In this document: positions 1 to 40,309 of the stretch, piece after piece | Layout of the letters: every line of letters begins with the position of its first letter | Numbering within the stretch: the stretch's first letter is position 1 | Source of the DNA: Pedosphaera sp. | GTDB taxonomy: Bacteria; Verrucomicrobiota; Verrucomicrobiia; Limisphaerales; Pedosphaeraceae | Assembly: GCA_028293325.1 (NCBI GenBank) | Contig: JAQGPA010000138.1 | Location: 1-45,379, forward strand | Direction: 5' to 3' | Length of the DNA stretch: 45,379 nt | Translations under genes and position numbers: made by a program | The notes under the pieces: generated by a model | What the model was told of the DNA's origin: nothing | What the model saw: only the letters and a program-made list of their open reading frames with translations | The model's database searches: none

Positions 1-181
1 CACTTCAGGCCCAATGCCCGTGACGTCACCCAGAGAAATGCCAATCCAGCCAACCATATTTTTGTAGCCCAGGTCGAATGACCGAAATCAAGAACACACA
101 ACCAAACGCCTTTGCGCGTTGAAAAGATTCTTTGCCAACCAACATCGACGAATCACATCGCTCATCAAAAACCACCACCGA

Positions 182-232
182 CTTCCCTCACCCTCGCCCA
201 TCCGATGGGAGAGGGCCGGGGTGAGGGTCCCC
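182..232. repeat. partial copy of an intergenic repeat family (hairpin module ccctcaccc...gggagagggccggggtgaggg)
   Basis: gggagagggccggggtgagggt is shared with 3479-3500 and 8937-8960. The flanking cctcaccc/gggtgagg form an inverted repeat. Confidence 0.5.
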
Positions 233-275
233 GGTTCTTGTTGCCTTCGCTTCGCCGGTTAACCCGCTGCCCGGA

Positions 276-1238
276 TTAGAAGTAACGCACGAACGTCTTC
301 TTCTTCAGCCGGTCAATCCATTTCTGCTGCAAGCGGGAACTTTCCCGTATCATCAAAGTGTTCTCGATTTCATCCCGCAGCTCAGCCAGCGGCTTATTGT
401 GCGCCGCCTGCCGCTCTTCCAATAGCACCAAAAAGCATGCCTGCGGCGTCTCAATCACCTCCGTGTATTCACCCGGCTTGAGTTTGGCCAGCGGCTCCAC
501 CAACGCCGTGTTCAGCACCTTGACCTCCTGCCACCCGTTCTCACCCCCTTGCGCGCGACCGGAACCATCCGAATAAACTGTCGCCATCTCCGCAAAAGCC
601 GCGCCGCCCTTGATCTGCAACAAAATTTCCTCCGCCCGCTTCTTGGCCGCGCCAGCCTCGTCCGACGTCAATTGGTTTAGCACAATGATCCGCGTCTTCA
701 CCTGGTCCGCCACTTTGTAATCCTCCAGATGTTCCTGGTAATAGACCTCAATTTTGTGCGGGGAAATAATCGGCTCCGGCACAAACTTATGCGTCATTTC
801 CTTGATGATCAGCGTGTCGCGCACCTGCTTGCGGAAAGTCTCATACGACATCCCTTCCTCCTGCAATTGCTTCGTAAACGCCACCCGGTCCGAAAACTTC
901 TCATGAATTTTATCCTGCACATATTCATCGATGATCGACTCCGGAATGTTAAACCCCGACGTGTGAAAATCGTGCAGAATCAATTCCCGTTGCAGCAACG
1001 TATCCATCGCATTGGTCACCATCCGCCCCATTTGCCGCTGATACTCGGCCGGTCGGGTCCGATACTCCTTCCGCAAATAATCCTCGGTTTGCGCCGTAAA
1101 TACCTCCACCTGCTGGTAAGTGACGAGCGCATCACTGACAATCACCTGGATGCCATCCGCCAATTCGGCGTGCAAACGCAATTCCGGGACGCTCACCAGA
1201 ACCGCAACCAACAACAGCCGCTTAAAAAAAGTTCTCAT
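276..1238 (-). CDS. SurA-like periplasmic peptidyl-prolyl cis-trans isomerase (parvulin/PpiC-type) with N-terminal signal peptide
   Basis: 320-aa ORF. Hydrophobic signal-like N-terminus (LLLVAVLVSVPELRLHA). SurA_N-like chaperone region followed by a PpiC rotamase-like region (RIIVLNQL...AEEILLQIKGGAAFAEMATVYSDGSGRAQGGENGW). TAA stop. Confidence 0.7.
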   Translation of the reverse strand: MRTFFKRLLLVAVLVSVPELRLHAELADGIQVIVSDALVTYQQVEVFTAQTEDYLRKEYRTRPAEYQRQMGRMVTNAMDTLLQRELILHDFHTSGFNIPESIIDEYVQDKIHEKFSDRVAFTKQLQEEGMSYETFRKQVRDTLIIKEMTHKFVPEPIISPHKIEVYYQEHLEDYKVADQVKTRIIVLNQLTSDEAGAAKKRAEEILLQIKGGAAFAEMATVYSDGSGRAQGGENGWQEVKVLNTALVEPLAKLKPGEYTEVIETPQACFLVLLEERQAAHNKPLAELRDEIENTLMIRESSRLQQKWIDRLKKKTFVRYF

Positions 1239-2728: not shown

Positions 2729-2794
2729 TTTCGCATCAATCCATTCTCCTCCCTCGCCCCGCTCCAAGTGGGGCGGGGGACCTCAATCTTCTCT

Positions 2795-2950
2795 GATCGT
2801 CCTCGTCGTCGTCCTCGTCCTCGATCCTTTCCGCTTCAATGCAAGAACCGAACGCGAGCACAGAAGGCATCGAACGGCCAAAACCTGATTACGCCTTCCG
2901 TCTCCCTCTCCGCGTCCCGGCGTACTTGGCCGGGATGGGGAAAGGGTACG
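2795..2950. repeat. degenerate copy of the intergenic repeat family
   Basis: tttccgcttcaatgcaagaaccga resembles tttattccgcttcacctcaatcacaaccga (3371-3400). ccgggatggggaaagggtacggggtgagg resembles ccgatgggagagggccggggtgaggg. The tcgtcctcgtcgtcgtcctcg motif recurs here too. Confidence 0.4.
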
Positions 2951-3042
2951 GGGTGAGGTGCCACAACAAAATTCTCCCCCCGTCCGCTTCCCCCCATTCC
3001 AATCCCCCTTGAGCTTTTCCCCCGACACGCTATTTTCACCCC

Positions 3043-3270
3043 ATGCCGATTTACGAATTCCAATGCGGGAAATGTAAAAAAGAGAGTGAAATCCTCGTCC
3101 GCTCCAGCCAATGGGAAGGCACCCCTTGCCCGCACTGCGGCTCCACCAACCTGACCAAGAAACTCTCCGTCTTCGCCTCCAGCGCCGGCAACGATGACTC
3201 CGGCCCCTCCTGCAGCGGCACCCCCAGTTCCTGCGGCAAATGCGGCACCGGCAAACCGCACTCCCACTAA
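3043..3270 (+). CDS. FmdB-family zinc-ribbon protein (CxxC...CxxC, putative regulatory)
   Basis: 75 aa with MPIYEFQCGKCKK...CPHCGS followed by a Ser/Gly/Cys-rich tail, typical of FmdB/CxxC_CxxC_SSSS proteins. Confidence 0.7.
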   Translation: MPIYEFQCGKCKKESEILVRSSQWEGTPCPHCGSTNLTKKLSVFASSAGNDDSGPSCSGTPSSCGKCGTGKPHSH

Positions 3271-3295
3271 AATAATTAGTATTTAATCCTCCCGC

Positions 3296-3600
3296 GCCTC
3301 CTGGTTTGGAGTTCAAGCTTCAGCTTGTCCCCGCCTCGCCCCGCGCCAGCGGGAAGAAGGGCGCGCGGAATTTATTCCGCTTCACCTCAATCACAACCGA
3401 TGAGCTAACACTCGCAAGCCACGCTTTGCCACCCAACGCAATCCACTCCCCCAGTGACCCGTGCGGAAGCACTCGGACGGGAGAGGGCCGGGGTGAGGGT
3501 TCCGAAATTCTCCAATTCCGCCTTGTCCGCCATAGCCTTGGCGACGGTGGAACTCCGAATTCTACACTCCGAATTTGAATGCCCCGTGCGGAAGCACCTT
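3296..3600. repeat. near full-length copy (~300 bp) of the modular intergenic repeat element
   Basis: Contains all modules: ggagttcaagctt; gcgggaagaagggcgcgcggaatttattccgcttcacctcaatcac; gacccgtgcggaagcactcggacgggagagggccggggtgagggt; gtccgccatagccttggcga; and a second ccccgtgcggaagcacc. It aligns along its length with 8636-8962. Confidence 0.6.
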
Positions 3601-3659
3601 TTCCCACCTTCGTGATCTTCGTGGTGAAAATCCATCCCCCCTTGGCCGTGCGCAAGCAC

Positions 3660-4340
3660 CTACTGTAAACAAAGTTCCCGCGCCTTCACCTTCTGCAAAT
3701 CCGTCACTGCCCAATCCGGCTTGTGCGCCTTCAATTCCGCCAGCGTGGAACCGCCTGTCGCCACTGCCAGCACCCGCGCGTCAATCGCCCGCCCGCATTT
3801 AATATCCAGCGGCGTGTCGCCAATCACCACGATCTCATCCCCGCGCAAATTCTGCTGCAACAAATTCGCCCCCCGTTCCCGCGCCACAAAAGCAATCTGG
3901 TTGCGATCCTCATGGTCATCCGCAAATGCCCCGGTCGTGAAAAATTCCCACAGATTGAAACGACGCAGCTTGATCTCCGCCCCCAGCCGGATGTTCCCCG
4001 TCAACAGCCCGATGGTCGGCGGTTGCGGCAACCGTTGCAGTTCGTAAATAAGCCGCCAGACACCCGGACAAATCTCCCCGGTGGCAAACGATAGCATGTG
4101 ATCCAGCCAATAGACGTAGCAGTCGAAAAATTGGCGGAAATTCTCCGGCGTCGGCGCGATGCCATGCTTGAGGAAAAACTCCCGTGCCAGCCCGGTGTCG
4201 GTGCGCCCCGCGAAGTTGACGCTCTCGGTCAATTCCGGCACCTGAAATTGCGTCGCCAACGCACGCCCAAAAGCCCTGACACCCGCCCCGGCCGTGTGAA
4301 TCAACGTCCCGTCAATATCAAATAATACCAGCCTGACCAT
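3660..4340 (-). CDS. HAD-superfamily hydrolase (phosphoglycolate phosphatase-like)
   Basis: 226 aa. Motif I VLFDIDGTL at the N-terminus, motif III/IV (IGDTPLDIKCGRAIDARV). TAG stop. Confidence 0.75.
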   Translation of the reverse strand: MVRLVLFDIDGTLIHTAGAGVRAFGRALATQFQVPELTESVNFAGRTDTGLAREFFLKHGIAPTPENFRQFFDCYVYWLDHMLSFATGEICPGVWRLIYELQRLPQPPTIGLLTGNIRLGAEIKLRRFNLWEFFTTGAFADDHEDRNQIAFVARERGANLLQQNLRGDEIVVIGDTPLDIKCGRAIDARVLAVATGGSTLAELKAHKPDWAVTDLQKVKARELCLQ

Positions 4341-10939: not shown

Positions 10940-12754
10940 TTAGCTACTTTTGGCAGCCGCTTTGGCAGTCGTTTGGTCACGGACCATCAAGCCGATGAGT
11001 CCATCCACCAATCCACTGCTCCCGTTCGTGCCGGTCACGGAAACATCCGGCACAATTCGCACGTTGCGCTCCCCCACGATCTGCATCAACTGCATCACCG
11101 TGTAGCCCTGCGCCCCGATCGCTTCCACGCCCACGCGATACGCTTCCGCTTTCGCATTGCCCGTGGCCCGGATGGCCTCAGCTTCGCCCAACGCCCGCAG
11201 CCGGGTGGCTTCCGCCTCGCCGGTCGCCTGCTTGATGTGCGCGCCCGCCTGCAACTCGGCGATGTTCACGCCCTGTTCCGCGCCCACCACCTGTTGCTGG
11301 ATATCCGCCACCGCGGTTTCCCGCACGAGTCGCTGCCGCTGCTTCTGCGCCGCTTCCTGCACCTCGTACGTCTTGCGTTGTTCTTCCGCGATCTTCCGTT
11401 CCGTTTGCGTCTCCATCAACGTCGCCGGCGGATTGATGTCTCCAATCAGCGTGTCAATCGCCTGCACGTCGTAAGCCGCCAACGCGACCCGGATATGCTG
11501 CGCCGCTTCCGTCTGCCGCTCGCTGCGCGCGCTCAGGAAGTCCAGCACCGTGTAGTGCTGCGCGGAATTGCGGAAATAATTTCCCACAATCGGCTGCAGC
11601 ACATGGTCCACCAGGTTCTGCATCGAACCCACCCGGGAGATCACCTTCGGCGCATCGAGCGCGCCCACATGGATGATCTGCGCCACGTCCAGGTTGAACC
11701 CGAACCCGTCGCGCGACCGCACCGTGATCGACGACAATTTTGCGTCATAATTATGGGACTCGGTCCGCGAGGCCCAGTTGAGCACGATATTCGTCGTCGG
11801 CACGCGTTCCACTTTCATGATGCGCGTGTTGACCGGATGTTTGCCCGGATACAGCGGCGTGACCCACACGCCTTTGTGACCCGTATTCACCAGGTCGCCA
11901 TGCTTAAACTCCAGACCGCTCACATCTTCATGTGCCATCCCCACAAACGAGATGACCACGCCAACATGCCCGATCGGAATCTCCAGCATCGGCACCTGTT
12001 CCACCTGGACAAACCACGGGTTCAGATTCCACGTGCCGGACAGCAGGATCTGCTCCTGCAATCCGCGCCGTCCGCCGCCCGCCAGAAATGCCTGCGCATT
12101 CTGGAAGTTGTCATGCGTCGGTATCAGCGGCCCGGCAATCTCGCCCTGCTCAATGGGCCGCCCGTCCAGCGTCGTCACAATGCCCACCCGATCCGGCAGC
12201 ACATGATGCAACAGCAGTTGTTCCGGCTGCATCCCATGTTGCTGCGCATCATAAGATGCGATGACCGTGAACAACGCCGTGTTGATCCGATACGTTCCCG
12301 CCGTGAGAATGCCCAACTGCCGGCCTTTCTCGCCGCCAGAAACCAGGAATTTCCGCGCATCCTGAAAGTTGTCGCAATCGACCACCTGGCCCAGGATGCG
12401 TTCCGAAGGTATGGCCGCGCCGTCCGCCGCCACCACCAACGCGATTTCACCCTGTGGCACCATGATCACGCCAACCTTGATGATCCGATACTGCCAACGC
12501 CAAAAACCGAAATGCAGTCCTGGCGCCAACGTATCCGCCTGATACCCTGCCTCGCCGCTCAAGGCAACGAGTTGACCTGGCTTAAGCGAACGTCCGGAGA
12601 ATCGCTTGATGACAATTCCCACCTGCCGCTCGCGAATCAGCACTGTGCCGAAGACCAACGGCCCAACCAGAAACAACAACGCGCAAACTGTGATTGCGCT
12701 AGCGATGAAAAACGATGATTCCACCGCTCCCACAAATGTAATGATAGCCAACAT
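10940..12754 (-). CDS. flotillin / SPFH (band-7) domain protein, YqiK-like
   Basis: N-terminal transmembrane helix, SPFH domain, then a long Ala/Glu/Gln-rich coiled-coil (AEQGVNIAELQAGAHIKQATGEAEATRLRALGEAEAIRATGNAKAEAYR). The start is placed at the internal ATG (MLAIITF...) preceded by GAAGG; the ORF-track start at 12883 is probably too far upstream. TAA stop. Confidence 0.8.
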   Translation of the reverse strand: MLAIITFVGAVESSFFIASAITVCALLFLVGPLVFGTVLIRERQVGIVIKRFSGRSLKPGQLVALSGEAGYQADTLAPGLHFGFWRWQYRIIKVGVIMVPQGEIALVVAADGAAIPSERILGQVVDCDNFQDARKFLVSGGEKGRQLGILTAGTYRINTALFTVIASYDAQQHGMQPEQLLLHHVLPDRVGIVTTLDGRPIEQGEIAGPLIPTHDNFQNAQAFLAGGGRRGLQEQILLSGTWNLNPWFVQVEQVPMLEIPIGHVGVVISFVGMAHEDVSGLEFKHGDLVNTGHKGVWVTPLYPGKHPVNTRIMKVERVPTTNIVLNWASRTESHNYDAKLSSITVRSRDGFGFNLDVAQIIHVGALDAPKVISRVGSMQNLVDHVLQPIVGNYFRNSAQHYTVLDFLSARSERQTEAAQHIRVALAAYDVQAIDTLIGDINPPATLMETQTERKIAEEQRKTYEVQEAAQKQRQRLVRETAVADIQQQVVGAEQGVNIAELQAGAHIKQATGEAEATRLRALGEAEAIRATGNAKAEAYRVGVEAIGAQGYTVMQLMQIVGERNVRIVPDVSVTGTNGSSGLVDGLIGLMVRDQTTAKAAAKSS

Positions 12755-13068
12755 AATGAACCTTCTGATGTGGTTGGCGCTCCGCGCGTTTGTTTGCACC
12801 CATGCCGGACGGCTGCACCGCCGGCACAGTTGCCGCGCAATGCGACAACGCTTACTCTGTTGGGGTGACCGTGAGTGCCGCAACTTGCGGCCTTAGAGGA
12901 TCGCCCTTCCAATTGCCGACGAGGTTAGCTGACGGGCTTGGTCCTGGAAGTGACCTTGGCCACGGTTACCCGCGGCCTTGCGCCCCATCCCCGGAATTTC
13001 TCCCGGGGAATTTGGTTCCCCCGCGCCAGCCCTCAGGAAGGAAGGCCGGCTTAGGCTGCTACTGTTTC

Positions 13069-13562: not shown

Positions 13563-14006
<444 letters not shown>

Positions 14007-14094: not shown

Positions 14095-14814
14095 ATGAGC
14101 ACAGGAAAAAGCGTAATTGATTCGGCCAAGAAACAAGGGGCCAAGATGGTGGACGTGAAGTTTGTGGACACCTTCGGCACCTGGCAGCACTTTAGCGTCC
14201 CCATGGGCGAGCTGACCGAGGAAGTTTTTGAAGAGGGCTTTGGTTTTGATGGCTCCTCCATCCGGGGTTGGAAAAGTATTGAAGCCTCCGACATGCTCGC
14301 GATGCCCGACCCCAATACGGCCTTCATCGATCCCTTCTGCGCAGTCCCAACTTTGAGCCTGACCTGCACCATCGCCGAGACAGGCACCAAGGAGGCTTAC
14401 AGCCGCGACCCGCGCGGCATCGCCCAACGCGGTGAAAAATATCTCAAGTCCACCGGTCTGGCCGATACCGCTGTGTTTGGACCCGAGGCCGAATTCTTCA
14501 TCTTCGACAACGTGCAGTATGATTCCAAGAGCAACGGCACCTTCTACAGTGTTGATTCCGAGGAAGCCGCCTGGAACACAGGTCGCGATGAGATGCCCAA
14601 CTTAGGCTACAAGATCCGCCACAAGGAGGGTTACTTCCCGGTCGCTCCCACGGACACCCAACAGGACATCCGCACCGAGATGTGTTTGGTGATGGAGAGC
14701 CTCGGGATCAAAGTGGAACGTCAGCATCATGAAGTGGCCACAGCCGGGCAGGCGGAAATCGACTTCCGCTTCGACACGCTGGTGAAGACCGCCGACAACA
14801 TGATGCTCTACTAG
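14095..14814 (+). CDS. glnA: glutamine synthetase type I, N-terminal 239-aa segment ending at an in-frame TAG
   Basis: GS beta-grasp and early catalytic domain (MVDVKFVDTFGTWQHF, DGSSIRGW, FGPEAEFFIF). Ends ...KTADNMMLY-TAG. Confidence 0.9.
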   Translation: MSTGKSVIDSAKKQGAKMVDVKFVDTFGTWQHFSVPMGELTEEVFEEGFGFDGSSIRGWKSIEASDMLAMPDPNTAFIDPFCAVPTLSLTCTIAETGTKEAYSRDPRGIAQRGEKYLKSTGLADTAVFGPEAEFFIFDNVQYDSKSNGTFYSVDSEEAAWNTGRDEMPNLGYKIRHKEGYFPVAPTDTQQDIRTEMCLVMESLGIKVERQHHEVATAGQAEIDFRFDTLVKTADNMMLY

Positions 14815-14862
14815 TATGTGATCAAAAACGTGGCCCGCTAGCACGGCAAGACGGCCACCTTC

Positions 14863-15507
14863 ATGCCCAAGCCTTTGTTCGGGGACAACGGCAGCGGCAT
14901 GCACACCCACCAATCATTGTGGAATAAGGGCAAGCCGCTGTTCGCAGGCAAGGAGTATGCGGGCCTCTCCCAGATGGCCTTGTACTACATTGGCGGCATC
15001 TTAAAACACGCCAAGGCCCTGTGCGCCATCTGCAATCCCACCACCAACAGCTACAAGCGCTTGGTGCCGGGCTACGAAGCACCCGTGAACCTGGCCTACT
15101 CGGCCCGGAATCGCAGTGCGGCCATTCGCATTCCTACCTTCAGCGAGAGTCCCAAGGCCAAGCGCATTGAGTATCGCCCGCCCGATCCCGCGGCCAATCC
15201 GTATCTCGCTTACACCGCGCTCTTGATGGCCGGTCTGGATGGCGTGCTCAACAAGATTGATCCGGGCGAGCCCTTGGACAAGAACATCTATGAATTGCCG
15301 CCCGAAGAGTTGGCCAAGGTGCCGAACGTGCCCAGCAGCTTGGGTGAAGCGTTGGATTGTTTGGAGAAGGATCACGCGTTCCTCTTGAAGGGCGACGTGT
15401 TCACGAAGGACTTTTTGGAAATGTGGGTCACGCACAAGCGCAAGGAACATGATGCCCTGCGTCTGCGCCCCCATCCCTATGAGTTCTTCCTCTACTACGA
15501 CGTGTAG
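14863..15507 (+). CDS. glnA: glutamine synthetase type I, C-terminal 214-aa segment, same frame as 14095-14814
   Basis: [50 protein letters not shown], canonical C-terminus ...FFLYYDV. Between the segments the frame reads TAG-YVIKNVAR-TAG-HGKTATF, colinear with E. coli YKYVVHNVAHRFGKTATF. Confidence 0.9.
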
Positions 15508-15559: not shown

Positions 15560-15937
15560 CTGAGAATTAAAGAAACGCCTGATTTTATTAGGTGAACGTG
15601 GATTGTGAATAACTCGTGAATAAAAGTTAATATGTTGTCCTCGTAACATGAACACGATTGGAATAAAAAGTAGCACCTCGGTGAGATTTCGTAAGCTGTC
15701 GTTTACTCTCGAAAAGTGCGAACCGGGATTTTTGGGTCGGATTATACGTAAGTAATTGAAACAAATGAATTTGCGCAGCGTAATTAGAGTCACGGCAGCG
15801 GTGAAGAATGGGTCTACGATTGATTTTGTTGGTTTGCCGGCGAATTCGGATTATAAAAGCATCGCAAAGGAAGTGTTACAGGCTCGTTACGGGGTTAGGT
15901 GAATAAAACGCCCGAAAATAGGGCGAATGGGATAATA
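15560..15937. other. AT-rich region upstream of dnaA with DnaA-box-like motifs (candidate oriC or dnaA autoregulatory region)
   Basis: tgtgaataa (15604-15612) is the reverse complement of TTATTCACA, which fits TTATNCACA. Near-matches cgtgaataa (15616-15624) and ggtgaataa (15898-15906). GC content is visibly lower than flanking genes. Confidence 0.35.
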
Positions 15938-17299
15938 ATGATGCAATCTTCTGCCGATAAAGTCTGGACTGCAGCGCAACAACAATTGCGCTCCATGTTG
16001 AGTCCGGACACTTTCAATCTCTGGTTCGCCCCGCTGCGCGCACAGACCCTGGATGCCGAATGCATCACCCTCGAGGTCGCCAATGATTTCTGCGAGGTCT
16101 GGCTTAAGGACAACTACATGGGCCTGCTGCAGGACGTGTTGTCGCGTTCTTCCGGCCAACCGATGCATGTTAAATTCAAAGTCGTGCCGGGTGGCGCTGT
16201 TGTCACCGCGCCCATCACGCACGCCAGCCACGCCAAAGCCAAGCCCGCGGAAACCGCCACCGAGCGCACCTCCGCTGAACTCGCGTTCAATCCCAAAAAC
16301 ACTTTCGACAGCTTCGTCGTTGGCAATAACAATAATTTCGCCCATGCCGCCGCCATGGCGGTCGCCCAGGCGCCCGGCAAATCCTACAATCCGCTGTTTC
16401 TTTATGGCGGTGTCGGTCTTGGCAAAACTCACTTGCTCCACGCCATCGGCCAGCATGTCGTCAGCCAAAGAAAAGGCGCGCGCGTTTCCTACGTCTCCTC
16501 GGAAAAATTTACCAACGAGTACATCGACGGCATCCAGAACAACCAACTCGCCCGTTTCCGGAAGAAATATCGCCAGACCGAAGTCTTGTTGATCGATGAC
16601 ATCCAATTCCTGGCCGGCAAGGAACGCATCCAGGAGGAATTTTTCCATACCTTCAACGCCCTGCACGAATCGCATAAACAAATCGTCCTCACGTGCGACC
16701 GTCCCGCCAGTGAAATCCAAAACCTCGAGCAACGCCTCGTCTCCCGTTTCGAATGGGGTTTGGTCACGGATTTGCAGCCGCCCGATATCGAGACTCGCCT
16801 GGCCATCCTGCGGAAAAAAGCCAAGTCTCTCGGCGTGGAACTGCCCGAGGAGATTATTAATTTCCTGGCGCATCGCATTCGCGCCAACATCCGCCGCCTG
16901 GAAGGCGCCTTGATCCGCGTCGCTTCCTACGCCTCGCTGACCGGCAAGAAATTGAGCATTGAAGTCGTGGAAGGCTTGTTGCGCGAAGTGCTGCACGAAG
17001 AAGGCCGCTTTTCCATCAACATTGAAGTCATCCAAAAGCGCGTGGCCGAGCATTATGATATTCGCCTGGCCGACATGACCAGCAAGCGCCGTCCGGAAAA
17101 TATCGCCTTTCCCCGTCAGGTGGCCATGTTCCTCTCCCGCCAAATGACGGAAAGCTCCCTCAACACCATCGGTGAAGCCTTTGGCGGACGCGATCACGGC
17201 ACTGTCCTCCACGCCTGCCGGCTCGTCAAAGACCGCATGGAAGTGGACGCCAATGTCCGCCAGGTGGTGCAATATCTGGAAAAGCAGTTGCTCCGTTGA
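15938..17299 (+). CDS. dnaA: chromosomal replication initiator protein DnaA
   Basis: N-terminal DnaA domain I (VWTAAQQQLRSMLSPDTFNLWFAPL). AAA+ Walker A GGVGLGKTHLL and Walker B LLIDDIQF. C-terminal DNA-binding domain IV (VAMFLSRQMTESSLNTIGEAFGGRDHGTVLHA). The start is placed at the ATG ATG pair; the ORF track begins at an upstream GTG. Confidence 0.95.
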   Translation: MMQSSADKVWTAAQQQLRSMLSPDTFNLWFAPLRAQTLDAECITLEVANDFCEVWLKDNYMGLLQDVLSRSSGQPMHVKFKVVPGGAVVTAPITHASHAKAKPAETATERTSAELAFNPKNTFDSFVVGNNNNFAHAAAMAVAQAPGKSYNPLFLYGGVGLGKTHLLHAIGQHVVSQRKGARVSYVSSEKFTNEYIDGIQNNQLARFRKKYRQTEVLLIDDIQFLAGKERIQEEFFHTFNALHESHKQIVLTCDRPASEIQNLEQRLVSRFEWGLVTDLQPPDIETRLAILRKKAKSLGVELPEEIINFLAHRIRANIRRLEGALIRVASYASLTGKKLSIEVVEGLLREVLHEEGRFSINIEVIQKRVAEHYDIRLADMTSKRRPENIAFPRQVAMFLSRQMTESSLNTIGEAFGGRDHGTVLHACRLVKDRMEVDANVRQVVQYLEKQLLR

Positions 17300-17335
17300 C
17301 AAACTTCGGGGTGGCTTCACATTAGAGCCCGAAGC

Positions 17336-18355
17336 TTGCAAAATTTAGCGACAACATCTTCTGCGACGCAATCTAACGAACCTGCCATCCAGGTTCGGGG
17401 CCTGACCAAGGCTTTCCGCACCTATAAAAAGGAACCGGGTTTTGGCGGTGCGCTTAAAGGACTCTTCCACCGTCGTTACGAGCAAACTTTTGCCGTTAAG
17501 GACGTGAATTTCTCCGTCGCTCCCGGCGAACTGGTTGGTTTTCTCGGCCCGAACGGCGCCGGCAAAACCACTACCCTAAAAATGCTCGCCGGCCTGCTTT
17601 ATCCCACCAGCGGCGAAGCGCACGTCCTCGGTTATGTGCCGTGGGAACGCAACGACGGCTATCGCCGCCAGTTCGCCCTGTTGCTCGGCCAAAAAAATCA
17701 GCTTTGGTGGGACCTGCCCGCCCGTGAATCGCTCGACCTCAACGCCAAAATCTACGGCATCCCCCGCGCTTCCTTCGAACGCACGGTGGCGGAAATGACC
17801 GAACTGCTCGGCGTCAAGGACAAGCTCAACGTCATGGTCCGCGAGCTCTCCCTCGGCGAACGGATGAAGATGGAACTCATCGCCGCCCTGTTGCACCAGC
17901 CCAAGGTGCTCTTTCTCGATGAACCCACCATCGGCCTCGACGTCATTTCCCAAAAAACCGTCCGCGAGTTCTTGCGGGAATATAACGCGAAGCAGAAAAC
18001 CACCATCCTGCTCACCAGCCATTACATGGCCGACATCCAGGAACTCTGCCGTCGCGTCATCATTATCGACCATGGCACCATCTTCTTCGACGGCCTGCTC
18101 AGCGACGTCGTGGATCGCTTCGCCGATTTTAAACTGATCACCATCCATTGCGACGGCGCGCCCGCCCGTCCCAAGGAAAGCCTCGCCCAATACGGCGAAT
18201 TGGTGGAGCAAAACGCCGACAGCCTCAAGTTCAAGGTCAAACGCGACCGCGTCATCCCCGTCTGCAAAGCTCTGCTCGACGACTTGCCCGTCAGCGACAT
18301 CGACATCGAAGAAGTCCCCATCGAGGACGTCATCCGCCAGATCTTTGCGCGGTAA
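17336..18355 (+). CDS. ABC transporter ATP-binding protein (ABC-2 / YbhF-like single ATPase)
   Basis: Walker A GPNGAGKTT, Q-loop, signature LSLGERMKMELIAAL, Walker B VLFLDEPT, H-loop TSHYM. The ORF begins with TTG at 17336, so the start is uncertain. No permease gene is adjacent. Confidence 0.85.
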   Translation: MQNLATTSSATQSNEPAIQVRGLTKAFRTYKKEPGFGGALKGLFHRRYEQTFAVKDVNFSVAPGELVGFLGPNGAGKTTTLKMLAGLLYPTSGEAHVLGYVPWERNDGYRRQFALLLGQKNQLWWDLPARESLDLNAKIYGIPRASFERTVAEMTELLGVKDKLNVMVRELSLGERMKMELIAALLHQPKVLFLDEPTIGLDVISQKTVREFLREYNAKQKTTILLTSHYMADIQELCRRVIIIDHGTIFFDGLLSDVVDRFADFKLITIHCDGAPARPKESLAQYGELVEQNADSLKFKVKRDRVIPVCKALLDDLPVSDIDIEEVPIEDVIRQIFAR

Positions 18356-18393
18356 GCGGTTTTGACGCCATGACCCGCCAAACTGGAATGAGT

Positions 18394-19074
18394 TTACTCC
18401 ACGCGGACGTTAGCCTCCAACGCCCGCACTTCAGCCAAACTGGCGTTCACTTCATTGCGCGGCAAATTTCCCGCCTCCAATGTGGCGTCACTCAGACGCA
18501 ACAGCCGTTCGTAGAACATAATTCCTTCGGAGATTAAAGCCGCATTGCCCGGCTCGACATCAAGCAGCGCAAATAACGCATCTTCCGCCTGCGCATAAGC
18601 CCCCATGCGTTCGTAATAACGCCACAACGCCGCCTGCGTGCGCGTCGGCAAAGGCGCATCCAGCAACTGCTGGCGCAATACTTCAATGCGGGGAACAAAA
18701 CCGGGAAGTTCCAGGTCCGTATCCTGCAATTGCAATGTCAGCAACAAGTTCAGCGCCTTCAGCAAACAGTCCTGACTTTGCGCCTCCCGCTGTGCCGCAG
18801 CATGAACCTGGCCGGCTTCCTGCAGCAAAGCCACCAGCAGCAGGCTTTTTTCGCGGAACACATGGGTCGGGTCGCCGACCGTGAGCTTCGCCAGCAGTTC
18901 AGTTTCGGAAAGCTGGCTGACCGCTTCCGCCCCGGTTCCGATCAGGTCAAGAAACGCCTGGTCCAGACCCGCGCCCGCCTCGGCATATTGCCGCGCGTCG
19001 AGTTGCCCCCGAATGCGCATGATGCTCTGCACGCACTGCTCGATCATGCGGAGAAGGTAATCCCGGCGAATCAT
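18394..19074 (-). CDS. conserved hypothetical protein (helical, no recognisable catalytic motif)
   Basis: 226-aa ORF with good coding periodicity, divergent from the 19345 cluster. No motif recognised with confidence. Confidence 0.45.
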   Translation of the reverse strand: MIRRDYLLRMIEQCVQSIMRIRGQLDARQYAEAGAGLDQAFLDLIGTGAEAVSQLSETELLAKLTVGDPTHVFREKSLLLVALLQEAGQVHAAAQREAQSQDCLLKALNLLLTLQLQDTDLELPGFVPRIEVLRQQLLDAPLPTRTQAALWRYYERMGAYAQAEDALFALLDVEPGNAALISEGIMFYERLLRLSDATLEAGNLPRNEVNASLAEVRALEANVRVE

Positions 19075-19344
19075 GCGTGTTTAAAGAGTAAATTTCCCAA
19101 GGCGACAGTCATTTTCGGGTCGGCGGTTTCAGCACCTTCCTTTCCTACACCAATTGGGCAAAACGGAGTGGTTGTCAATGCGCCAATTCGTCGAAACTTT
19201 TGCATCGTTTTTCGAAAAGTGGTGCGGAATATGCATCACTTTTCCAAAGGCCGCTTGTAATCGCAAAGGCCGTTTCTATAATGCAGAAAAAATGCGTGCT
19301 GTAGTAAATCAACCGGTGTTGCCTGTCAAACCCCTCGTTTTGGC

Positions 19345-20631
19345 ATGAAACGCAAAGCCACAACGGTCAATCGCCGCCCCTCCATCATGGTGCTGGGTGT
19401 CGGTTCCTTTGCCCATAGCGCCGCCCAGATCCTCCAGGACAATGGCGCGCAGGTTTCGACCTATCTGACGCGCAATTACGGCCATTTTCCACCGTCACTG
19501 GTCGGCCCCACCTACACCCAGGAGCGCTTTCCCAATCCCTGTTCGTTGCTCAAGGAAAAGCAGGTGGATTTGGTGCTGCCCATGTCCATTGATTGGGCAC
19601 AGGCGCCGTGGAAAGACGAATTGCTGGCCGGCAAGACCCCCATTTTTTGCCCCACCGGCGAAGGGATGCGCATCGAGCGCGAACGCGACTTTGCCCGCAA
19701 ACTTTGCCACGATTTCAAAATCCCCTTTCCCAAGGCGCATGTTGCGCCCAACCGTCTCGCCGCGGAAAAACTGCTCAAGCAACACGCCCGCCCTTACGTC
19801 ATCAAGAATCCGCTCTGCTCCCCGACGAGCCCCATTCACACCATTCTGTGCGAAACAGTGGAGGATACCCGCTCCTGGCTTAAGAACATCAATTACGCAG
19901 AAGGCGTCTTTCTCCAGGAATACATGGGTCGCGCCGAGGCGGGGCACATCGCGCTCATCAGCGGCGGTGAGATTTATCCGCTCGTCACGAACCAGGAATA
20001 CAAACGCGCCTTCTCTGGTGACATGGGCGTGGTCGCCGGCGCGCCGCTCGGCGGGTTGGTGGAAAAAGACCCGGGCGACAAATACGGCCTCGCCCGTACG
20101 TTGCTTAATCCGTTGCGACCCTGGTTTCGCGCCGTGAATTATCACGGCCCCATTCAGGTCACGGCGGTCTGCCGCAATCGCAAATGGTACGTCATCGAAT
20201 ATAATATTCGCATTGGCGTCACTTCCGGCGCCATGATCCTGCGGATGCTTGCCAATCCCATCGAGACCCTGCTGCGCACCGCGCAAAACAAAAAATTGGA
20301 CCTGAATTTCAAGCCCGATTGGAACTTTGGCTGTTCCGTTACACTCGCCGGCTACGGCTATCCCTACGTGCAACAACGCGGTCCGCAATTGCCGGTCGAA
20401 ACCACCGGACCATTTGACCCGGATTGCGATGTCTGGTGGAATGAAGTCGCGCGGAACGGCGATGGCAAATTATTCACCACGGGCCATCGCATCGCCGACG
20501 TCATTGCGTTCAGCCCGTCGCTGGACGGCGCGATCCAGAAGGCCTATGCGAACATCCGCAAAATTCGCAGCCTCGGCAGTTATCATCGGGTGGACATTGG
20601 CCGGAGTCTCTGGCCGCCGGGAAACAGCTAA
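19345..20631 (+). CDS. PurD-like ATP-grasp ligase (divergent phosphoribosylamine-glycine ligase family paralog)
   Basis: 428 aa, colinear with PurD. N-terminal Rossmann-like MVLGVGSFAHSAAQIL corresponds to PurD VLVIGSGGREHALA. Central ATP-grasp region. C-terminal ...YHRVDIGRSLW corresponds to PurD ...CRKDIGWRA. Several PurD signature residues are replaced, so it is probably not a bona fide purD. Confidence 0.55.
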   Translation: MKRKATTVNRRPSIMVLGVGSFAHSAAQILQDNGAQVSTYLTRNYGHFPPSLVGPTYTQERFPNPCSLLKEKQVDLVLPMSIDWAQAPWKDELLAGKTPIFCPTGEGMRIERERDFARKLCHDFKIPFPKAHVAPNRLAAEKLLKQHARPYVIKNPLCSPTSPIHTILCETVEDTRSWLKNINYAEGVFLQEYMGRAEAGHIALISGGEIYPLVTNQEYKRAFSGDMGVVAGAPLGGLVEKDPGDKYGLARTLLNPLRPWFRAVNYHGPIQVTAVCRNRKWYVIEYNIRIGVTSGAMILRMLANPIETLLRTAQNKKLDLNFKPDWNFGCSVTLAGYGYPYVQQRGPQLPVETTGPFDPDCDVWWNEVARNGDGKLFTTGHRIADVIAFSPSLDGAIQKAYANIRKIRSLGSYHRVDIGRSLWPPGNS

Positions 20632-20637
20632 ACCATA

Positions 20638-21837
20638 ATGTCGCAAACCATGTCTGAGACGATTCCAACTCGCGGCCCGCTGCCGCCCGAACCCGTCGTG
20701 ACCAAACGGCCGTCGCGCTCCGCGTGGATTGAGGTGGACTTGTCGCGGCTCCGGCAAAATTACCAGGCCATCAACCAGGACAGACCCAAAGGCGTTCAGT
20801 TTCTCTCCGTCATCAAAGACGAAGCCTATGGCCACGGAGCTTTCGCGGTGGGCAAGGTGGCCCTGGAATGCGGGGCCGCCTTCCTCGCGCTGAGCAATGT
20901 CGATGAAGCCCTGACGCTACGGCAGCGTGGCATTCAGTCGCCTCTCTTGTTGTTGGGCGAACGGCAGGCAGCCGAGTTGTCCTGTTGCATCGAGCATAAT
21001 TTGACCTGTTGCGTCAACGACCTCCACACCGCGGAAAAACTCGGCCAACTCGCCGCGAACGCCGGCCGCCGGGTGCCGGTTCATCTCAAAATCAACACCG
21101 GCATGAACCGTTATGGTATTCGTTGGACGGATGCCCTGCCGTTGGTCGAAAAAATCTGCGCCATCAAATCACTCGCGTTGGAAGGCGTCCTGAGCCATTT
21201 CTCAATGTCCGACGAACTGGACAAGACTTTTGCGCTGCTGCAGCTCGAACGCTTCACCCAGATCCTTTCGGGCATGGCCAAGCGCGGCCTCTCCGTGAAA
21301 TATCGCCACCTCTGCAACAGCGGCGGCTTTCTCGATCTCCCCCAGGCCCATTTCGACATGGTGCGCATCGGCATGCTGCAACTCGGCGTTTATCCTTCCA
21401 AGGTTTGCCGGCGCATCAACGGCATCGCGCCCATCATGTCGGTCAAGGCCCGCGTCGCCGCCCTGCAAAGCATTCAAAAGGACGACGTCGTCGGCTACGG
21501 CATGCGCTATCAAGCCGCATCGCCGCGCCGCATCGCCGTGATCCCCGTGGGTTACGGCGACGGCTTCCCGCGCGTTCGCAATCAGGGCTGCGTGCTCATC
21601 GGCGGCAAACGCGCCCCGCTCGTCGGCGGTGTGGCCATGGACGCCCTCACCGTGGATGTCACCGACTTGCCGGCCGTCCAACTCTGGGATGAAGTCGTGC
21701 TCATGGGCCGCCAGGGCACTGAGGAAATTTCCGTGAACGAAGTCGCGCAGTGGAAAAATTCCGTCTCCTACGACGTCCTCGCCGGCTGGCGCGCGCGCCT
21801 GCCGCGAATTTACGTCAATGAACCAGGCACCGCATGA
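20638..21837 (+). CDS. alr: alanine racemase (PLP-dependent, fold type III)
   Basis: PLP-lysine motif VIKDEAYGHG, a second-domain conserved Tyr region, 399 aa. The start is 6 nt after the upstream gene. Its stop overlaps the next start (ATGA). Confidence 0.85.
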   Translation: MSQTMSETIPTRGPLPPEPVVTKRPSRSAWIEVDLSRLRQNYQAINQDRPKGVQFLSVIKDEAYGHGAFAVGKVALECGAAFLALSNVDEALTLRQRGIQSPLLLLGERQAAELSCCIEHNLTCCVNDLHTAEKLGQLAANAGRRVPVHLKINTGMNRYGIRWTDALPLVEKICAIKSLALEGVLSHFSMSDELDKTFALLQLERFTQILSGMAKRGLSVKYRHLCNSGGFLDLPQAHFDMVRIGMLQLGVYPSKVCRRINGIAPIMSVKARVAALQSIQKDDVVGYGMRYQAASPRRIAVIPVGYGDGFPRVRNQGCVLIGGKRAPLVGGVAMDALTVDVTDLPAVQLWDEVVLMGRQGTEEISVNEVAQWKNSVSYDVLAGWRARLPRIYVNEPGTA

Positions 21838-22637
21838 AACTGCTTTTCTCCGAACATAAGGCCGACTACGCCCATTATATTTTTCCGTATGCCATCTGGG
21901 GCATTCCCGAGGCGGGTGAAACCCCGGGCGATTTCTTTAATCAAGGCTTTCTCCCCTCCTCGCGCGACCTGGACCGCTTCTATCTCTGCCGCCATGTGCG
22001 CGTCAATTTAAAGGATTACACCGCCTCCTCCGAGAACCGCCGTATCTTGCGCAAAGGCGATGGCATCACCGTCACGCTCATCCCGCGCGCGGAGTTCGAT
22101 TACAACGCCCAGCGCCGCGAGTTCTACAAAACCTATGCCGACATCAAGTTCGGCAAGGACATGATGACCTACGAGCGCCTCGATTCGCTCTTCAGCGGCA
22201 AGATCACCTCGCACCTCCTCGTTTTCACCGACACCAAATCCGGCGCGGAAATCGGCACCGTCACGCTCTACCTCGAGCAAAACCGGATGGCCTATTATTA
22301 CTACGCTTTTTACGACCTGAAGTATTACAGCCGCAATCTCGGCATGTTCATGATGACCTCCGCCGTGGAATTCTTCGCGGAACGCGGCTTGGAATCACTC
22401 TACCTGGGCTCCTGTTATTCCCAGAACGCGCTCTACAAAACCCAGTTCGAAGGCGCGCAATTTTTCAACGGTGTCCGCTGGTCCAATCTCCTCGACGAAT
22501 TGAAATATCTCATCCGCCGCGAAGACGGCGAAGTCCGCCAGCATCTTCTGGAAACCGAGGAATACCGCCAGCTCTTCTACGCCGCCGACCTCAGCAACAT
22601 CATCTCAGCCAGTCAATTTCAGGTGAAACTTAAATAG
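21834..22637 (+). CDS. ATE/Bpt-family aminoacyl-tRNA-protein transferase homolog (arginyl-/leucyl-transferase-like)
   Basis: 267 aa. The C-terminal region carries an ATE_C-like motif LGSCYSQNALYKTQF (cf. LGYYI...KxxYKxxF). GNAT-like fold length is typical of bacterial Bpt. Translationally coupled to alr. Confidence 0.55.
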   Translation: MKLLFSEHKADYAHYIFPYAIWGIPEAGETPGDFFNQGFLPSSRDLDRFYLCRHVRVNLKDYTASSENRRILRKGDGITVTLIPRAEFDYNAQRREFYKTYADIKFGKDMMTYERLDSLFSGKITSHLLVFTDTKSGAEIGTVTLYLEQNRMAYYYYAFYDLKYYSRNLGMFMMTSAVEFFAERGLESLYLGSCYSQNALYKTQFEGAQFFNGVRWSNLLDELKYLIRREDGEVRQHLLETEEYRQLFYAADLSNIISASQFQVKLK

Positions 22638-34742: not shown

Positions 34743-36440
34743 CTAATCCTTCGCGCTCAGCGAACCAATCACCCCACCCGGCGCGTGATAACTGTGGCAG
34801 GTCGCACAACCACTCGCCACCCCGCCCTTGGGACTGTGACATTCCACACAACTTGATTTGCTCGGCAGCAGCACATCCGCCGTCTCACGACTCCGCTCTA
34901 CGTCATGGCATTTGGCGCAAGCCATATTGATATGCTTTGCGTGATTGAATTGGCCGCGAATCAACCACCGCGTCATTTGAACCGGCGGCACAATGTCCGG
35001 CGCGGCGTCCGCGCCGGTCGCTTTAACCTCATGGCAATACGCACATCCGGGGTATCGCGCACGGGCGGGTTGCTCTCCGTCGCCGGTTTTCTCCATCGGG
35101 CCGTTGTGGGCATCGCTGAAGAAAACCTGCTGTTCCAAATTCTCACCCGCCAGGGCTTGCTTCCGCAGTCCCGCCATTTGCAGTTTCACAAATGCGTCCA
35201 ATTCAACCTGCGTCGTCAGGCCCTTCTTGTTGCGCCCATATTCCGCGTATTGCGCGGGCAGGCTGCGCAGAAAAGCGCGCGCAAACTCCGCGTTCCCGTG
35301 CGGAATCGACAACTCCGGATTCTTCTCGTCGAATTGCAGCGAGTGGCAAACCTTGCAATTCTGCTCGTAGGAAACCGGCTGATAATACAAACCCGTCGCG
35401 TCCGGTTTATGACAGGTGGCGCAATCCAGTTTTTTGCCGTTCACGGATGGAATGTTCGGCGAGCCCAGATGCAGTTGATGATTAAATTTGAGCGTGTCGG
35501 GATCGCGCAGCTTTTCAGCCAGCACTTGAAATTCCGGATGATCGGTCGCAAAGGTGTGGATCACCTTCGTGTAACCCTGCTCCGGTCGCGGCGCCTTGAA
35601 CATCGTCCACCCAAGGTCGGGCCGATAATCAAATGCCGCCGCCGGAAGCTCCTTGCCTCTCTGGAACGAGGCTTGCATGACCTGCCCATCTGCATGACAC
35701 GAGGCGCAATTCGCATCTTCCGGCCGCTGCATCACCATTCCTTGATGTTCCCGATGGCACGCGGAGCAGGAATGGTCGCGCACCACGTTCGGTTCATGAA
35801 AATTGTGACGTTGATGACAAGTCTGGCAGGACGCGTCAATCGCCGTCAACCCCGTGTTCGTCGTGGCCAGCAGCTTGTGAAACTCCAGCAATGCCGGATC
35901 CGCTCCCGCCGCGGAACCCAGCCAGCGGGCCGGTCCCGCGCCGGCCGCGCCGTGACACGCCGCGCAATCCTGCCCGTTGCCGCCCGCGCCCCGATGCATC
36001 CGCGCGAATGCCTCCGTGGAATGTTGCGCGGACAGCCTTCCGGGATTGATGAATTGCGAACGAAAGGGTCCGCTCAACGATACCAGCAACACCGCCACCG
36101 TGAGCATCACCACCACCCGAGTGAACACCTTCCGTTTTGCGCGCAAGCTGCGGACTGGCTGGCATTTGGTAATGGCCCGGCAGCAGGTGCCGTCGGGCAA
36201 CGGCCCGGTTTCGCACGCCCCGCCAAACTCCGCCGTGCGCGTGCAACGATAGCGCCCCTTCGTTTCTCCCTCCTTGAGTTCAAGCACCGGCCGGCATTCA
36301 AACGTCGCGCGGCACCGGCCGCTGGGATCGGGCCCGATGCGACAACATTGCCCCTTCGCCGCCTTGCCGCAAATCCAATCCTGGTTGGGCCGCGCATACT
36401 GGCTGGCGTCAAATTGAGGCGCGGGCAATTGCTCTTTCAC
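34743..36440 (-). CDS. decaheme c-type cytochrome with N-terminal Cys-rich (cytoplasmic?) domain and one TM helix
   Basis: Ten CxxCH motifs (CAACHG, CQTCHQ, CSACHR, CASCHA, CATCHK, CKVCHS, CAYCHE, CAKCHD, CVECHS, CATCHS). N-terminal ~95 aa hold 10 Cys in two tandem C...CC...C...C-(R/Q)P units before the TM VVVMLTVAVLLVSL. The start overlaps the upstream gene's stop (ATGA). Confidence 0.85.
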   Translation of the reverse strand: MKEQLPAPQFDASQYARPNQDWICGKAAKGQCCRIGPDPSGRCRATFECRPVLELKEGETKGRYRCTRTAEFGGACETGPLPDGTCCRAITKCQPVRSLRAKRKVFTRVVVMLTVAVLLVSLSGPFRSQFINPGRLSAQHSTEAFARMHRGAGGNGQDCAACHGAAGAGPARWLGSAAGADPALLEFHKLLATTNTGLTAIDASCQTCHQRHNFHEPNVVRDHSCSACHREHQGMVMQRPEDANCASCHADGQVMQASFQRGKELPAAAFDYRPDLGWTMFKAPRPEQGYTKVIHTFATDHPEFQVLAEKLRDPDTLKFNHQLHLGSPNIPSVNGKKLDCATCHKPDATGLYYQPVSYEQNCKVCHSLQFDEKNPELSIPHGNAEFARAFLRSLPAQYAEYGRNKKGLTTQVELDAFVKLQMAGLRKQALAGENLEQQVFFSDAHNGPMEKTGDGEQPARARYPGCAYCHEVKATGADAAPDIVPPVQMTRWLIRGQFNHAKHINMACAKCHDVERSRETADVLLPSKSSCVECHSPKGGVASGCATCHSYHAPGGVIGSLSAKD

Positions 36441-37273
36441 CGCGCGCCCCCCGAGAAGGCGTAAACCAAAATGATGTGAACGATGGAAAAGATGAGCAGG
36501 CTGTAGGTCAGCGGAATATGCACGAACAACCAGCCGCGCAACGAGAGTTGCAGCGCATGATGATAATCCAATCCATCCTTCTGCCGCACCAGTTCGGCGA
36601 TTTTCTCCAATGTCTCCCGCTCCTTCGCGTCTGAATAACGGTTCAGGTCGCTAATCTTGTTGAGCAGCAGGTTCAACGGCCGGCGCACTTCCAAAAAGTG
36701 CAGCGAAAGATTCTGCGGCCTCTCAAAAAAGTCCTTCAACTGGGTGATGTAAAAATTTGCAATCGTAGGCGAGCGCGCCTCGCTCACCGATTGTAACGCC
36801 AACGCCTCCGCCTGTTGCTGAAAGCCGCGGCGAATCGCCGGAATCCGCTCATACAATATTTCACCGCCGCGTGTCGTCAGCCGCTTCGGAATCGACCGCG
36901 AGACGAATAATCCCCACACCCCGCTCAACGTCACCAGCACATACAGCCATGCGAGTGTCCCCTGAAACCAGCCGGTCGGCATTTTATAACTGATATGAAT
37001 CGCAAACAAAATCACCGTCAGCAACCCGGCATAAATATGAAATTGCAGCCAGCTTTCCGACGAGCCGAGCGGCAGGAACGGCAATTTCTTGCGCCCGTTA
37101 TACGCGGTCAACACCAGCATTACCGCGAACAGCACCCAGCCGGAAACATAACTTAGGCGCGGCATCACTCCGGCATACTTCGCATGCTCGGCCATCGCCC
37201 ACGCACCGAATGCCACCAGCATCCCCAGCCCCATCCAGCGTTGTCGGGTGAAGGAGGTCATCGCTTCAGCCAC
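36437..37273 (-). CDS. ferric-reductase-like (FRD/MsrQ-like) di-heme-b transmembrane protein
   Basis: 6 predicted TM helices. Two H-x13-H pairs in TM helices: HIYAGLLTVILFAIH and HIPLTYSLLIFSIVH, the spacing diagnostic of bis-heme ferric reductase domains. Confidence 0.6.
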   Translation of the reverse strand: MAEAMTSFTRQRWMGLGMLVAFGAWAMAEHAKYAGVMPRLSYVSGWVLFAVMLVLTAYNGRKKLPFLPLGSSESWLQFHIYAGLLTVILFAIHISYKMPTGWFQGTLAWLYVLVTLSGVWGLFVSRSIPKRLTTRGGEILYERIPAIRRGFQQQAEALALQSVSEARSPTIANFYITQLKDFFERPQNLSLHFLEVRRPLNLLLNKISDLNRYSDAKERETLEKIAELVRQKDGLDYHHALQLSLRGWLFVHIPLTYSLLIFSIVHIILVYAFSGGAR

Positions 37274-38997: not shown

Positions 38998-39004
38998 GCG
39001 GATA

Positions 39005-40309
39005 TCAGGCGTCGAGAACGATACTACCGCGGGGTTTGCAAATGCACGTCAGGCACGAACCGCTTTCCGGCTTCTCGCCCGGTTCGCTCACATAGTCCAC
39101 GTCCCCGGATTTGATGGCGACCAGGCAACTTCCGCAACTCCCCGCCCGGCAGCCGGAATCAATCCGCACTCCGTTTTCCAATGCAAAATCGAGCAGCGAC
39201 CCCGTGCCGGGCTGCCATTGGCATTTCTTGCCCGACCGGCTGAACATGACTTCGATGGCCGCCACGCCCGCCTCGGCGGCTGGCGCCACTGGCGCGGCCT
39301 TCTTCTTCACTGTCGCCGGTCCAAATGCTTCGAAAAAGACACTCTTCTCCGGCACGCCCCATGCCTCGAGGCCGTCCGAAATGCTTTTCATAAACGCGCC
39401 ATTGCCACAGAGAAAATAATCGTAATTGTTGGACGGCAGCAGTTCCTTGAACAATTCCACGCACACCCGCCCTTCATGATGGTAATCAGTCCCTTTGCAG
39501 TCCTCCGCGTCCGGCCGGCTGTAACAGACATGCAAATGAATATTCTCATTTGCCGCCGCCAACCGTGCCATTTCCTCCTTGTGAATATGCTCCTTACGAT
39601 TCCGCGCGCCGAAGAAAAACCAGACCTCCCGCTTCGACCCGATCGCCGCAATCGCGTTGGCCATGCTCAACATCGGCGTCACTCCCACGCCGCCGGACAC
39701 CAGCACCACCGGCGCTTCCTTGGCCATATCCAGGAAGAAGTTCCCGCCCGGCGCTTTCACATCCAGTATGTCGCCTTCCTTCACGCGATCGTAGAAATAA
39801 CTCGAAGCCACGCCGGACGGCAGTTCGGGACGATTCGGCGGCGGCGGCTCTTTCTTGATCGTCACGCGATAATAATCGGTGCGATGCGGACTGTCCGAAA
39901 GCGAGTAACAACGCACCACCGGCTTGCCAATGCCCGGAATATTCAATTGAAATGTGATGTATTGCCCCGGTTTGTAAGGCGGCAGCGGCTTGCCATCGTG
40001 CGGCGCCAGATAAAAAGCGCAGACGCCATCGCATTCCTTGACCTTTTTGGCGACCTGAAATTTCCGATACCCATTCCACACCAACCGGGCCTGCTCGACC
40101 TCGCGACACTGCATTGCCGCGGCCTTGACGAGCAATTGCAGCCGTTCCCGGCTGTGTTTCTGATGCTCGCGCTCGAAATAAACCCGCCGGATGGTGATGT
40201 AGAGCAGCAGCAATCCTTGCAGCAAAAGAATTCCCAGCAGCGCGTAACCGAACGCCAGCCCAACACTCCCGCCCAGCGCCCGATGCAAGCTGTCGATAAT
40301 TGATTGCAT
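39005..40309 (-). CDS. membrane-anchored FAD/NAD(P)H oxidoreductase (ferredoxin-NADP-reductase-like) with C-terminal 2Fe-2S ferredoxin domain
   Basis: N-terminal TM (LAFGYALLGILLLQGLLLLYI). FAD-binding R-x-Y-S (VRCYSLS). NAD-binding GGVGVTPMLSM. C-terminal plant-type ferredoxin Cys cluster CRAGSCGSC...C. 434 aa. Confidence 0.8.
   Translation of the reverse strand: MQSIIDSLHRALGGSVGLAFGYALLGILLLQGLLLLYITIRRVYFEREHQKHSRERLQLLVKAAAMQCREVEQARLVWNGYRKFQVAKKVKECDGVCAFYLAPHDGKPLPPYKPGQYITFQLNIPGIGKPVVRCYSLSDSPHRTDYYRVTIKKEPPPPNRPELPSGVASSYFYDRVKEGDILDVKAPGGNFFLDMAKEAPVVLVSGGVGVTPMLSMANAIAAIGSKREVWFFFGARNRKEHIHKEEMARLAAANENIHLHVCYSRPDAEDCKGTDYHHEGRVCVELFKELLPSNNYDYFLCGNGAFMKSISDGLEAWGVPEKSVFFEAFGPATVKKKAAPVAPAAEAGVAAIEVMFSRSGKKCQWQPGTGSLLDFALENGVRIDSGCRAGSCGSCLVAIKSGDVDYVSEPGEKPESGSCLTCICKPRGSIVLDA

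Follow-up and report, generated by a model that had tools for sequence, protein, structure and literature searches.

Decoding of UAG as pyrrolysine (pylTSBCD), a lysine derivative, is found in methanogens and in some Firmicutes and Deltaproteobacteria. In the classical amber mutants and suppressors of E. coli (supE/supF) a single-base change to TAG kills the gene product unless a mutant tRNA with the anticodon CUA is present. According to PMC12626013, UAG can serve both as stop and as sense codon in pyrrolysine-encoding organisms. Phages using code 15 have reassigned TAG throughout their genomes with the aid of suppressor tRNAs (bioRxiv 10.1101/2021.08.26.457843), and in-frame stops are common in bacterial genomes as short-lived polymorphisms (PMC7918605).

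Herein, the glutamine synthetase gene of an uncultured Verrucomicrobium is described, which carries two premature TAG codons. The window, i.e. the whole stretch of DNA that was analysed, is the entire 45,379-bp contig of the NCBI MAG 'Pedosphaera sp.' (locus tags JWR19_). It represents an ordinary Verrucomicrobial chromosome segment encoding, among others, SurA, DAHP synthase, DnaE, GlnB, GlnA, DnaA, alanine racemase, ATCase, multihaem cytochromes and a sensor kinase. The features of the locus are as follows.

13668..14006, plus strand: glnB (P-II nitrogen regulator), intact, directly 5' of glnA; PF00543 positions 1-102 of 102, protein identical in the sister strains L001 and L002
14095..15507, plus strand: glnA, type I glutamine synthetase, 470 codons and terminal TAG, with two in-frame TAGs; matches to TIGR00653 and to glutamine synthetase structures in the PDB
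14095..14814, plus strand: N-terminal glnA fragment, 239 aa, the sole product expected with the standard code; exact match to MDB6018491.1
14757..14955, plus strand: raised divergence from L001 over ~200 nt with both TAGs inside; 14 of the 28 glnA differences
14812..14814, plus strand: first premature TAG, codon 240, AAG (Lys) to TAG by A-to-T at 14812; palindrome ACTAGT at 14810-14815
14839..14841, plus strand: second premature TAG, codon 249, AAG (Lys) to TAG by A-to-T at 14839; palindrome GCTAGC at 14837-14842
14863..15507, plus strand: C-terminal glnA open reading frame, 214 aa, beginning at Met257 of the intact protein; exact match to MDB6018492.1
15523..15554, plus strand: hairpin and T run resembling an intrinsic terminator, 16 nt past the terminal TAG of glnA; -18.7 kcal/mol, z = -3.0, followed by UUUUUU

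Translation of the frame from the ATG at 14095 to the terminal TAG at 15505-15507 revealed exactly two internal in-frame TAGs, spaced by 27 nt. The open reading frames on both sides of them share one frame, and the gene length of 1413 nt is the same as in the intact 470-codon glnA of L001, without indel or frameshift. With the stops read as Lys, the protein matches TIGR00653 (the NCBIfam model for type I glutamate-ammonia ligase, curated cut-off 429 bits) over model positions 2-462 of 462 at 698 bits. This is a full-length family match above the cut-off, as expected for a type I glutamine synthetase. Furthermore, the 470 restored residues align end to end with glutamine synthetase structures of the PDB (E down to 2.9e-201). 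In the standard code the gene lacks an uninterrupted frame for the full enzyme, and the C-terminal open reading frame is probably not a genuine translation unit. The terminal TAG coincides exactly with the end of the 470-residue homologues; the strong terminator-like hairpin and T run, which follow 16 nt on, show it to be the true end of the gene.

Each premature TAG lies within a 6-bp palindrome with a CTAG core, a tetranucleotide of which the window has only 12 copies (0.61 of the expected number), and the base 3' of the stop differs between the first (TAG-T) and the second site (TAG-C). The sole other GCTAGC of the window (12698-12703) is located inside an SPFH gene and reads GCTGGC in the sister strain L002 (G-to-A at 12701). 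No stop is made by this difference, which is probably a coincidence. The same gene, encoding a 647-aa SPFH/Band-7 domain protein (10940-12883, minus strand), is directly preceded at its 5' side by a c-di-AMP (ydaO-type) riboswitch (12899-13067, minus strand; 61.8 bits versus a gathering score of 38), and it is an uncommon gene for this riboswitch class.

Several observations were made elsewhere on the contig. Immediately 3' of glnA lies dnaA (15938-17299, plus strand); a 484-aa open reading frame on the minus strand (15887-17341) was rejected as a gene, being antisense of dnaA. The GC skew is negative throughout, reaching -0.24 at the left end, and since neither a skew switch nor a cluster of DnaA boxes was found, no origin is evident in the window. 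Between the genes for DAHP synthase and a HAD hydrolase (2730-3660, ~930 nt) only open reading frames with atypical codon-position composition and no Pfam match were seen. The NCBI accession numbering has room for three CDS at this place, and the TAG of the HAD hydrolase is followed by an in-frame open stretch of 84 codons. A redox cluster (34743-41557) comprises two multihaem c-type cytochromes (MtrC/MtrF-like and c554-like), a DUF4405 membrane protein, a cNMP-binding 4Fe-4S protein and an FNR-like FAD/NAD/2Fe-2S reductase. At the right end, an S1/P1-nuclease-like open reading frame (44878-45300, plus strand) covers only positions 1-65 of 258 of the Pfam profile and ends with a TGA 79 nt from the contig end, where a frameshift or poor sequence quality may be responsible.

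In order to establish the ancestral state of the two codons, glnA was compared with its relatives. The closest sequence, L001, is a JGI metagenome contig with an identical GlnB and an intact glnA of 98.0% DNA identity. It has AAG at both sites, and each stop of the window corresponds to a single A-to-T change (CAAG to CTAG). At the first site L001 reads CTCTACAAGTATGTG and the window CTCTACTAGTATGTG, and at the second site L001 reads GCCCGCAAGCACGGC and the window GCCCGCTAGCACGGC. Position 14812 is A in all ten more distant relatives compared, and position 14839 is either A or C in these ten (AAG or CGN). At the protein level, codon 240 encodes Lys in 131 of 131 full-length homologues, and codon 249 encodes Lys in 99, Arg in 28, Gln in three and Ser in one of them; the Synechocystis enzyme (3NG0) has Lys at both positions. 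The preliminary description of this DNA had noted two in-frame TAGs 27 nt apart at positions occupied by Lys and Arg in E. coli GlnA, in one frame and with no other lesion, and all of these statements agree with the present results.

No stop was found anywhere in glnA among the 81 related loci listed (80 species-representative genome loci and L001); TAG at the same codons of orthologous genes, which the preliminary description had suggested to look for, did not turn up. Among the species-representative matches listed, the closest glnA (92% protein identity) belongs to CALRJY020000005.1, a MAG labelled 'Chitinophaga pinensis', and the similarity suggests that this bin may be mislabelled or contaminated. 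A degenerate pattern with TAG at both codons gave zero matches in 241 million metagenome records, and the same pattern with the stop bases left free matched two contigs, both AAG/AAG. No other short GlnA ending in ...NMMLY was found in protein clusters, and a collection of 15 billion proteins contains neither the Lys/Lys form of the protein nor the product with a single stop. Thus, glnA exhibits derived premature stops at codons that are sense in intact orthologues, as is characteristic of a nonsense-disrupted gene. Both stops are present in the deposited record and are unique to it.

That the stops belong to the public record follows from the submitters' annotation, in which the two halves of glnA appear as separate proteins, MDB6018491.1 (239 aa, entitled 'MAG: Glutamine synthetase, type [Pedosphaera sp.]') and MDB6018492.1 (214 aa). 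The TAGs could nevertheless be an error of this record. The true glnA would then read AAG/AAG, and the TAGs would stem from sequencing, assembly, consensus calling, polishing or a promoted minority variant. We regard such an error as the main rival to a genuine null allele, possible but clearly the less probable of the two. It is consistent with an allele that was found nowhere else in the searches, with a gene free of any decay and normally indispensable, and with the report that many in-frame stops are artefacts (PMC7918605). Furthermore, the stops lie in the part of glnA in which strains diverge more strongly and in which haplotypes may have been mixed during assembly; mixing cannot, however, create bases that are carried by no strain.

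The general quality of the contig argues against an error. In the other 30 confidently called genes of the window (12,457 codons) no internal stop was detected, the gene calls across the window gave no frameshifts, and the genes are complete by Pfam coverage. In the Logan assembly of run SRR13312996, a contig of 4,283 bp is 100% identical to positions 18241-22523 of the window, and this identity shows that the strain is present in the run and that, at least in this segment, the MAG contig reproduces the reads faithfully. At such an error rate, two random errors both making TAG within 27 nt would be very unlikely. A miscall linked to the sequence motif was rejected as well, with 87 unchanged RCAAGY in the window, one of them (GGC AAG CCG) in glnA itself. 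Neither the truncated nor the intact GlnA was found in the Logan assembly of this run, which leaves the TAGs unconfirmed by this independent assembly. However, the assembly is patchy over the entire contig (about half of the tested contig genes are present), and therefore its silence at glnA is uninformative.

With respect to the age of the changes, the remainder of the gene is instructive. A loss of glnA function long ago with independent accumulation of the stops under relaxed selection would agree with two nonsense codons in one gene, a textbook mark of pseudogenes, and with the second synthetase of relatives described below. Yet a strain of 98% identity has an intact gene, 24 of the 26 other differences from L001 are synonymous, and no rare residue was found in the GlnA of the window among 131 homologues. 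Further signs of relaxed selection (frameshifts, indels, rare residues or an excess of non-synonymous change) were sought in glnA and not found. AAG-to-TAG is a small class, with 28 out of 4,230 conceivable single-base changes in the gene, and the naive probability of two independent changes of this kind within nine codons is ~1e-4 even with neutral evolution. Slow decay is accordingly considered very unlikely, in line with the earlier expectation that pseudogene drift would not give such a pattern. The absence of decay is compatible only with a very recent event. The identity of the two changes and their spacing of 27 nt, in a gene that shows no other decay, indicate one recent event (or one error) as the source of both.

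Among the differences from sister strains transitions predominate and A-to-T is a rare class. Between 14757 and 14955 the divergence from L001 amounts to ~7%, compared to ~1% elsewhere. As these differences are mostly synonymous and both states are found in relatives, the tract looks like ordinary recombination rather than hypermutation. Candidate mechanisms for the pair itself were considered in turn. Template switching in a quasi-palindrome was suggested by the arms 14827-14842 and 14846-14861, which gain three pairs relative to L001 (14839, 14850 and 14855). It was judged too weak, with the adjacent pair 14840/14848 still mismatched and nothing comparable at the first site. Gene conversion from a donor inside the window was rejected, given that no similar 15-mer was detected at up to three mismatches, chance matches aside, and no second copy of the stop-bearing segment exists in the window. 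Since both changes occurred at adenines, a diversity-generating retroelement was also considered and rejected; the window contains neither a template repeat nor a reverse transcriptase domain. None of quasi-palindrome template switching, gene conversion and adenine-directed retroelement mutagenesis thus provided a convincing mutational mechanism.

A different question is whether the TAGs are read through. In this case either an amber suppressor that evolved from tRNA-Lys(CUU) and inserts Lys, or a Pyl-like system, would decode UAG at some efficiency, the full-length enzyme would still be made and the TAGs might throttle glutamine synthetase output. We consider suppression or recoding of any such kind unlikely. 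A more specific form of it also appears quite unlikely, namely that the strain has recently gained a Lys-inserting amber suppressor, through a change of tRNA-Lys from CUU to CUA, or some other decoder of UAG, and that the TAGs are thereby read as Lys with reduced efficiency. In favour of decoding, glnA is otherwise fully intact, and both TAGs are at Lys codons, as would be the case by chance for ~9% of random TAG pairs (unweighted). Insertion of Lys at the stops would give back the wild-type protein, but the coincidence is only a hint of such a suppressor. The ambiguous use of UAG as stop and sense in pyrrolysine-encoding organisms, as given in PMC12626013, would also be compatible with such decoding.

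The remaining tests argued in the opposite direction. TAG terminates nine of the 31 window genes (29%; TGA 13, TAA 9), including glnA just before its terminator hairpin, and is thus not avoided as a terminator as it would be after reassignment by a suppressor. As the preliminary description had recognized, TAG is a true terminator for glnA, the HAD hydrolase, the MFS transporter, the Bpt-like gene and the sensor kinase. Reassignment would also be expected to place in-frame TAGs in many genes, and none occurs in the 30 other genes of the window. A search for other split genes, with stops flanked by long open stretches, yielded nothing but antisense frames and neighbouring genes. Outside glnA, 0 of the 290 AAG codons of these 30 genes became TAG, compared to 2 of 28 in glnA (Fisher p = 0.0075), and tolerance of TAG through suppression leaves the confinement of both to a single stretch of 27 nt unexplained. 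At neither codon is TAG conserved, as it would be in orthologues under pyrrolysine recoding; no relative has it there, and the 98%-identical strain and all 81 related loci listed have sense codons. ARAGORN found no tRNA in the 45-kb window, in 34 related loci no tRNA next to glnA had the anticodon CUA, and pylT, pylS and pylBCD were not seen within the window. The RNA fold around the stops is no better than that of shuffled sequence (z = -0.65), no Rfam family was found near glnA, and the bases following the two stops differ. Two serial stops would moreover square any partial readthrough efficiency. In a literature search on pyrrolysine and amber codons in Verrucomicrobia, the top-ranked papers did not mention this group. 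In summary, no sign of recoding or of gene decay accompanies the stops, and the idea of regulatory readthrough is unsupported. If suppression were true after all, glnA output would depend on suppressor activity, and the locus would be a natural, incipient instance of a stop codon being captured by a free-living bacterium. It would show the genetic code at an early stage of change.

The preliminary description had left three explanations unranked. Recent inactivation with a further synthetase elsewhere and an error or strain-specific mutation both fit, given that the stops are derived, unique and very recent and that a second glutamine synthetase occurs in a relative whose gene order is the same. 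Programmed readthrough or suppression found no support in the tests made, with TAG unconserved, absent inside the other window genes and not avoided, and with neither a tRNA in the window nor a conspicuous RNA structure. In the relative L086, whose GlnA is 90% identical, a GlnII-type synthetase is encoded ~89 kb away from glnA on one contig of 901,757 bp, on which the order glnB-glnA-dnaA-ABC ATPase is kept. In L006, a related Verrucomicrobia MAG, a GlnII (eukaryote-like) synthetase at 3-782 (plus strand) is located directly 5' of glnA, where the window has glnB. GlnII is common in Verrucomicrobiota MAGs, and with a second synthetase of this type in relatives, a null allele of glnA may be tolerated.

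On balance, we favour with moderate confidence a null allele of glnA that arose very recently and is specific to this strain; most likely both TAGs go back to one clustered event. In the lineage sampled by the MAG, two Lys AAG codons 27 nt apart would have changed to TAG by the identical A-to-T transversion in CAAG context, most likely simultaneously, as a mutation cluster. With the standard code, which is apparently in use elsewhere in this organism, translation would end at codon 240. The predicted product is a 239-residue fragment without most of the catalytic domain, and the interrupted copy would yield no active type I glutamine synthetase. The cell would rely on another synthetase or on environmental glutamine. 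Herein we infer that the reads carry the stops, that one event accounts for both and that a second synthetase compensates. Against the null allele, it has to be considered that the second synthetase is known only from relatives and that a mechanism for two identical transversions 27 nt apart is lacking, the quasi-palindrome being weak at the second site and absent at the first. Furthermore, two stops at Lys are mildly unexpected for random nonsense changes and would be explained by a Lys-inserting suppressor. If the null allele holds, the consequences beyond this genome are small: no working type I glutamine synthetase should be assigned to the MAG, and one more nonsense-disrupted gene is added to those of MAGs. 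At the same time, the glnA pair might serve as a neat illustration of how double mutations can arise in a cluster.

In comparison with the known systems, the locus shares with pyrrolysine decoding an in-frame TAG in an otherwise intact gene, and both sites are Lys codons. It differs from it in that no pyl genes and no tRNA-CUA occur within 45 kb, glnA is not a methylamine methyltransferase, its orthologues do not share the TAGs, and the window shows no depletion of TAG among its terminators. Code-15 phages likewise have in-frame TAG where relatives have sense codons. There, however, many genes are broken by TAG and the genome carries a suppressor tRNA, whereas here 30 genes with 12,457 codons are free of it and the window is a bacterial chromosome segment with dnaA and dnaE. 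The features of pyrrolysine recoding and TAG reassignment for which glnA was inspected, namely conserved TAG, TAG in many genes and TAG avoidance, are absent. Single-base changes to TAG connect glnA with the E. coli amber mutants, but the latter arose from mutagenesis and selection in culture, whereas glnA comes from an uncultured environmental genome with no suppressor seen in the 45-kb window. Among known categories, in-frame nonsense polymorphisms or young pseudogenes, which are widespread in bacterial genomes and usually short-lived, come closest (Belinky et al. 2021, PMC7918605). Like these cases, glnA carries its stops in a conserved gene shaped by selection with hardly any surrounding divergence; unlike them, it has two identical nonsense changes 27 nt apart in a core gene of nitrogen assimilation. 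Meaningful stops are shared by at least two species in that study, whereas the glnA stops are confined to one record. The lesion is of an ordinary kind, in an unusual double form.
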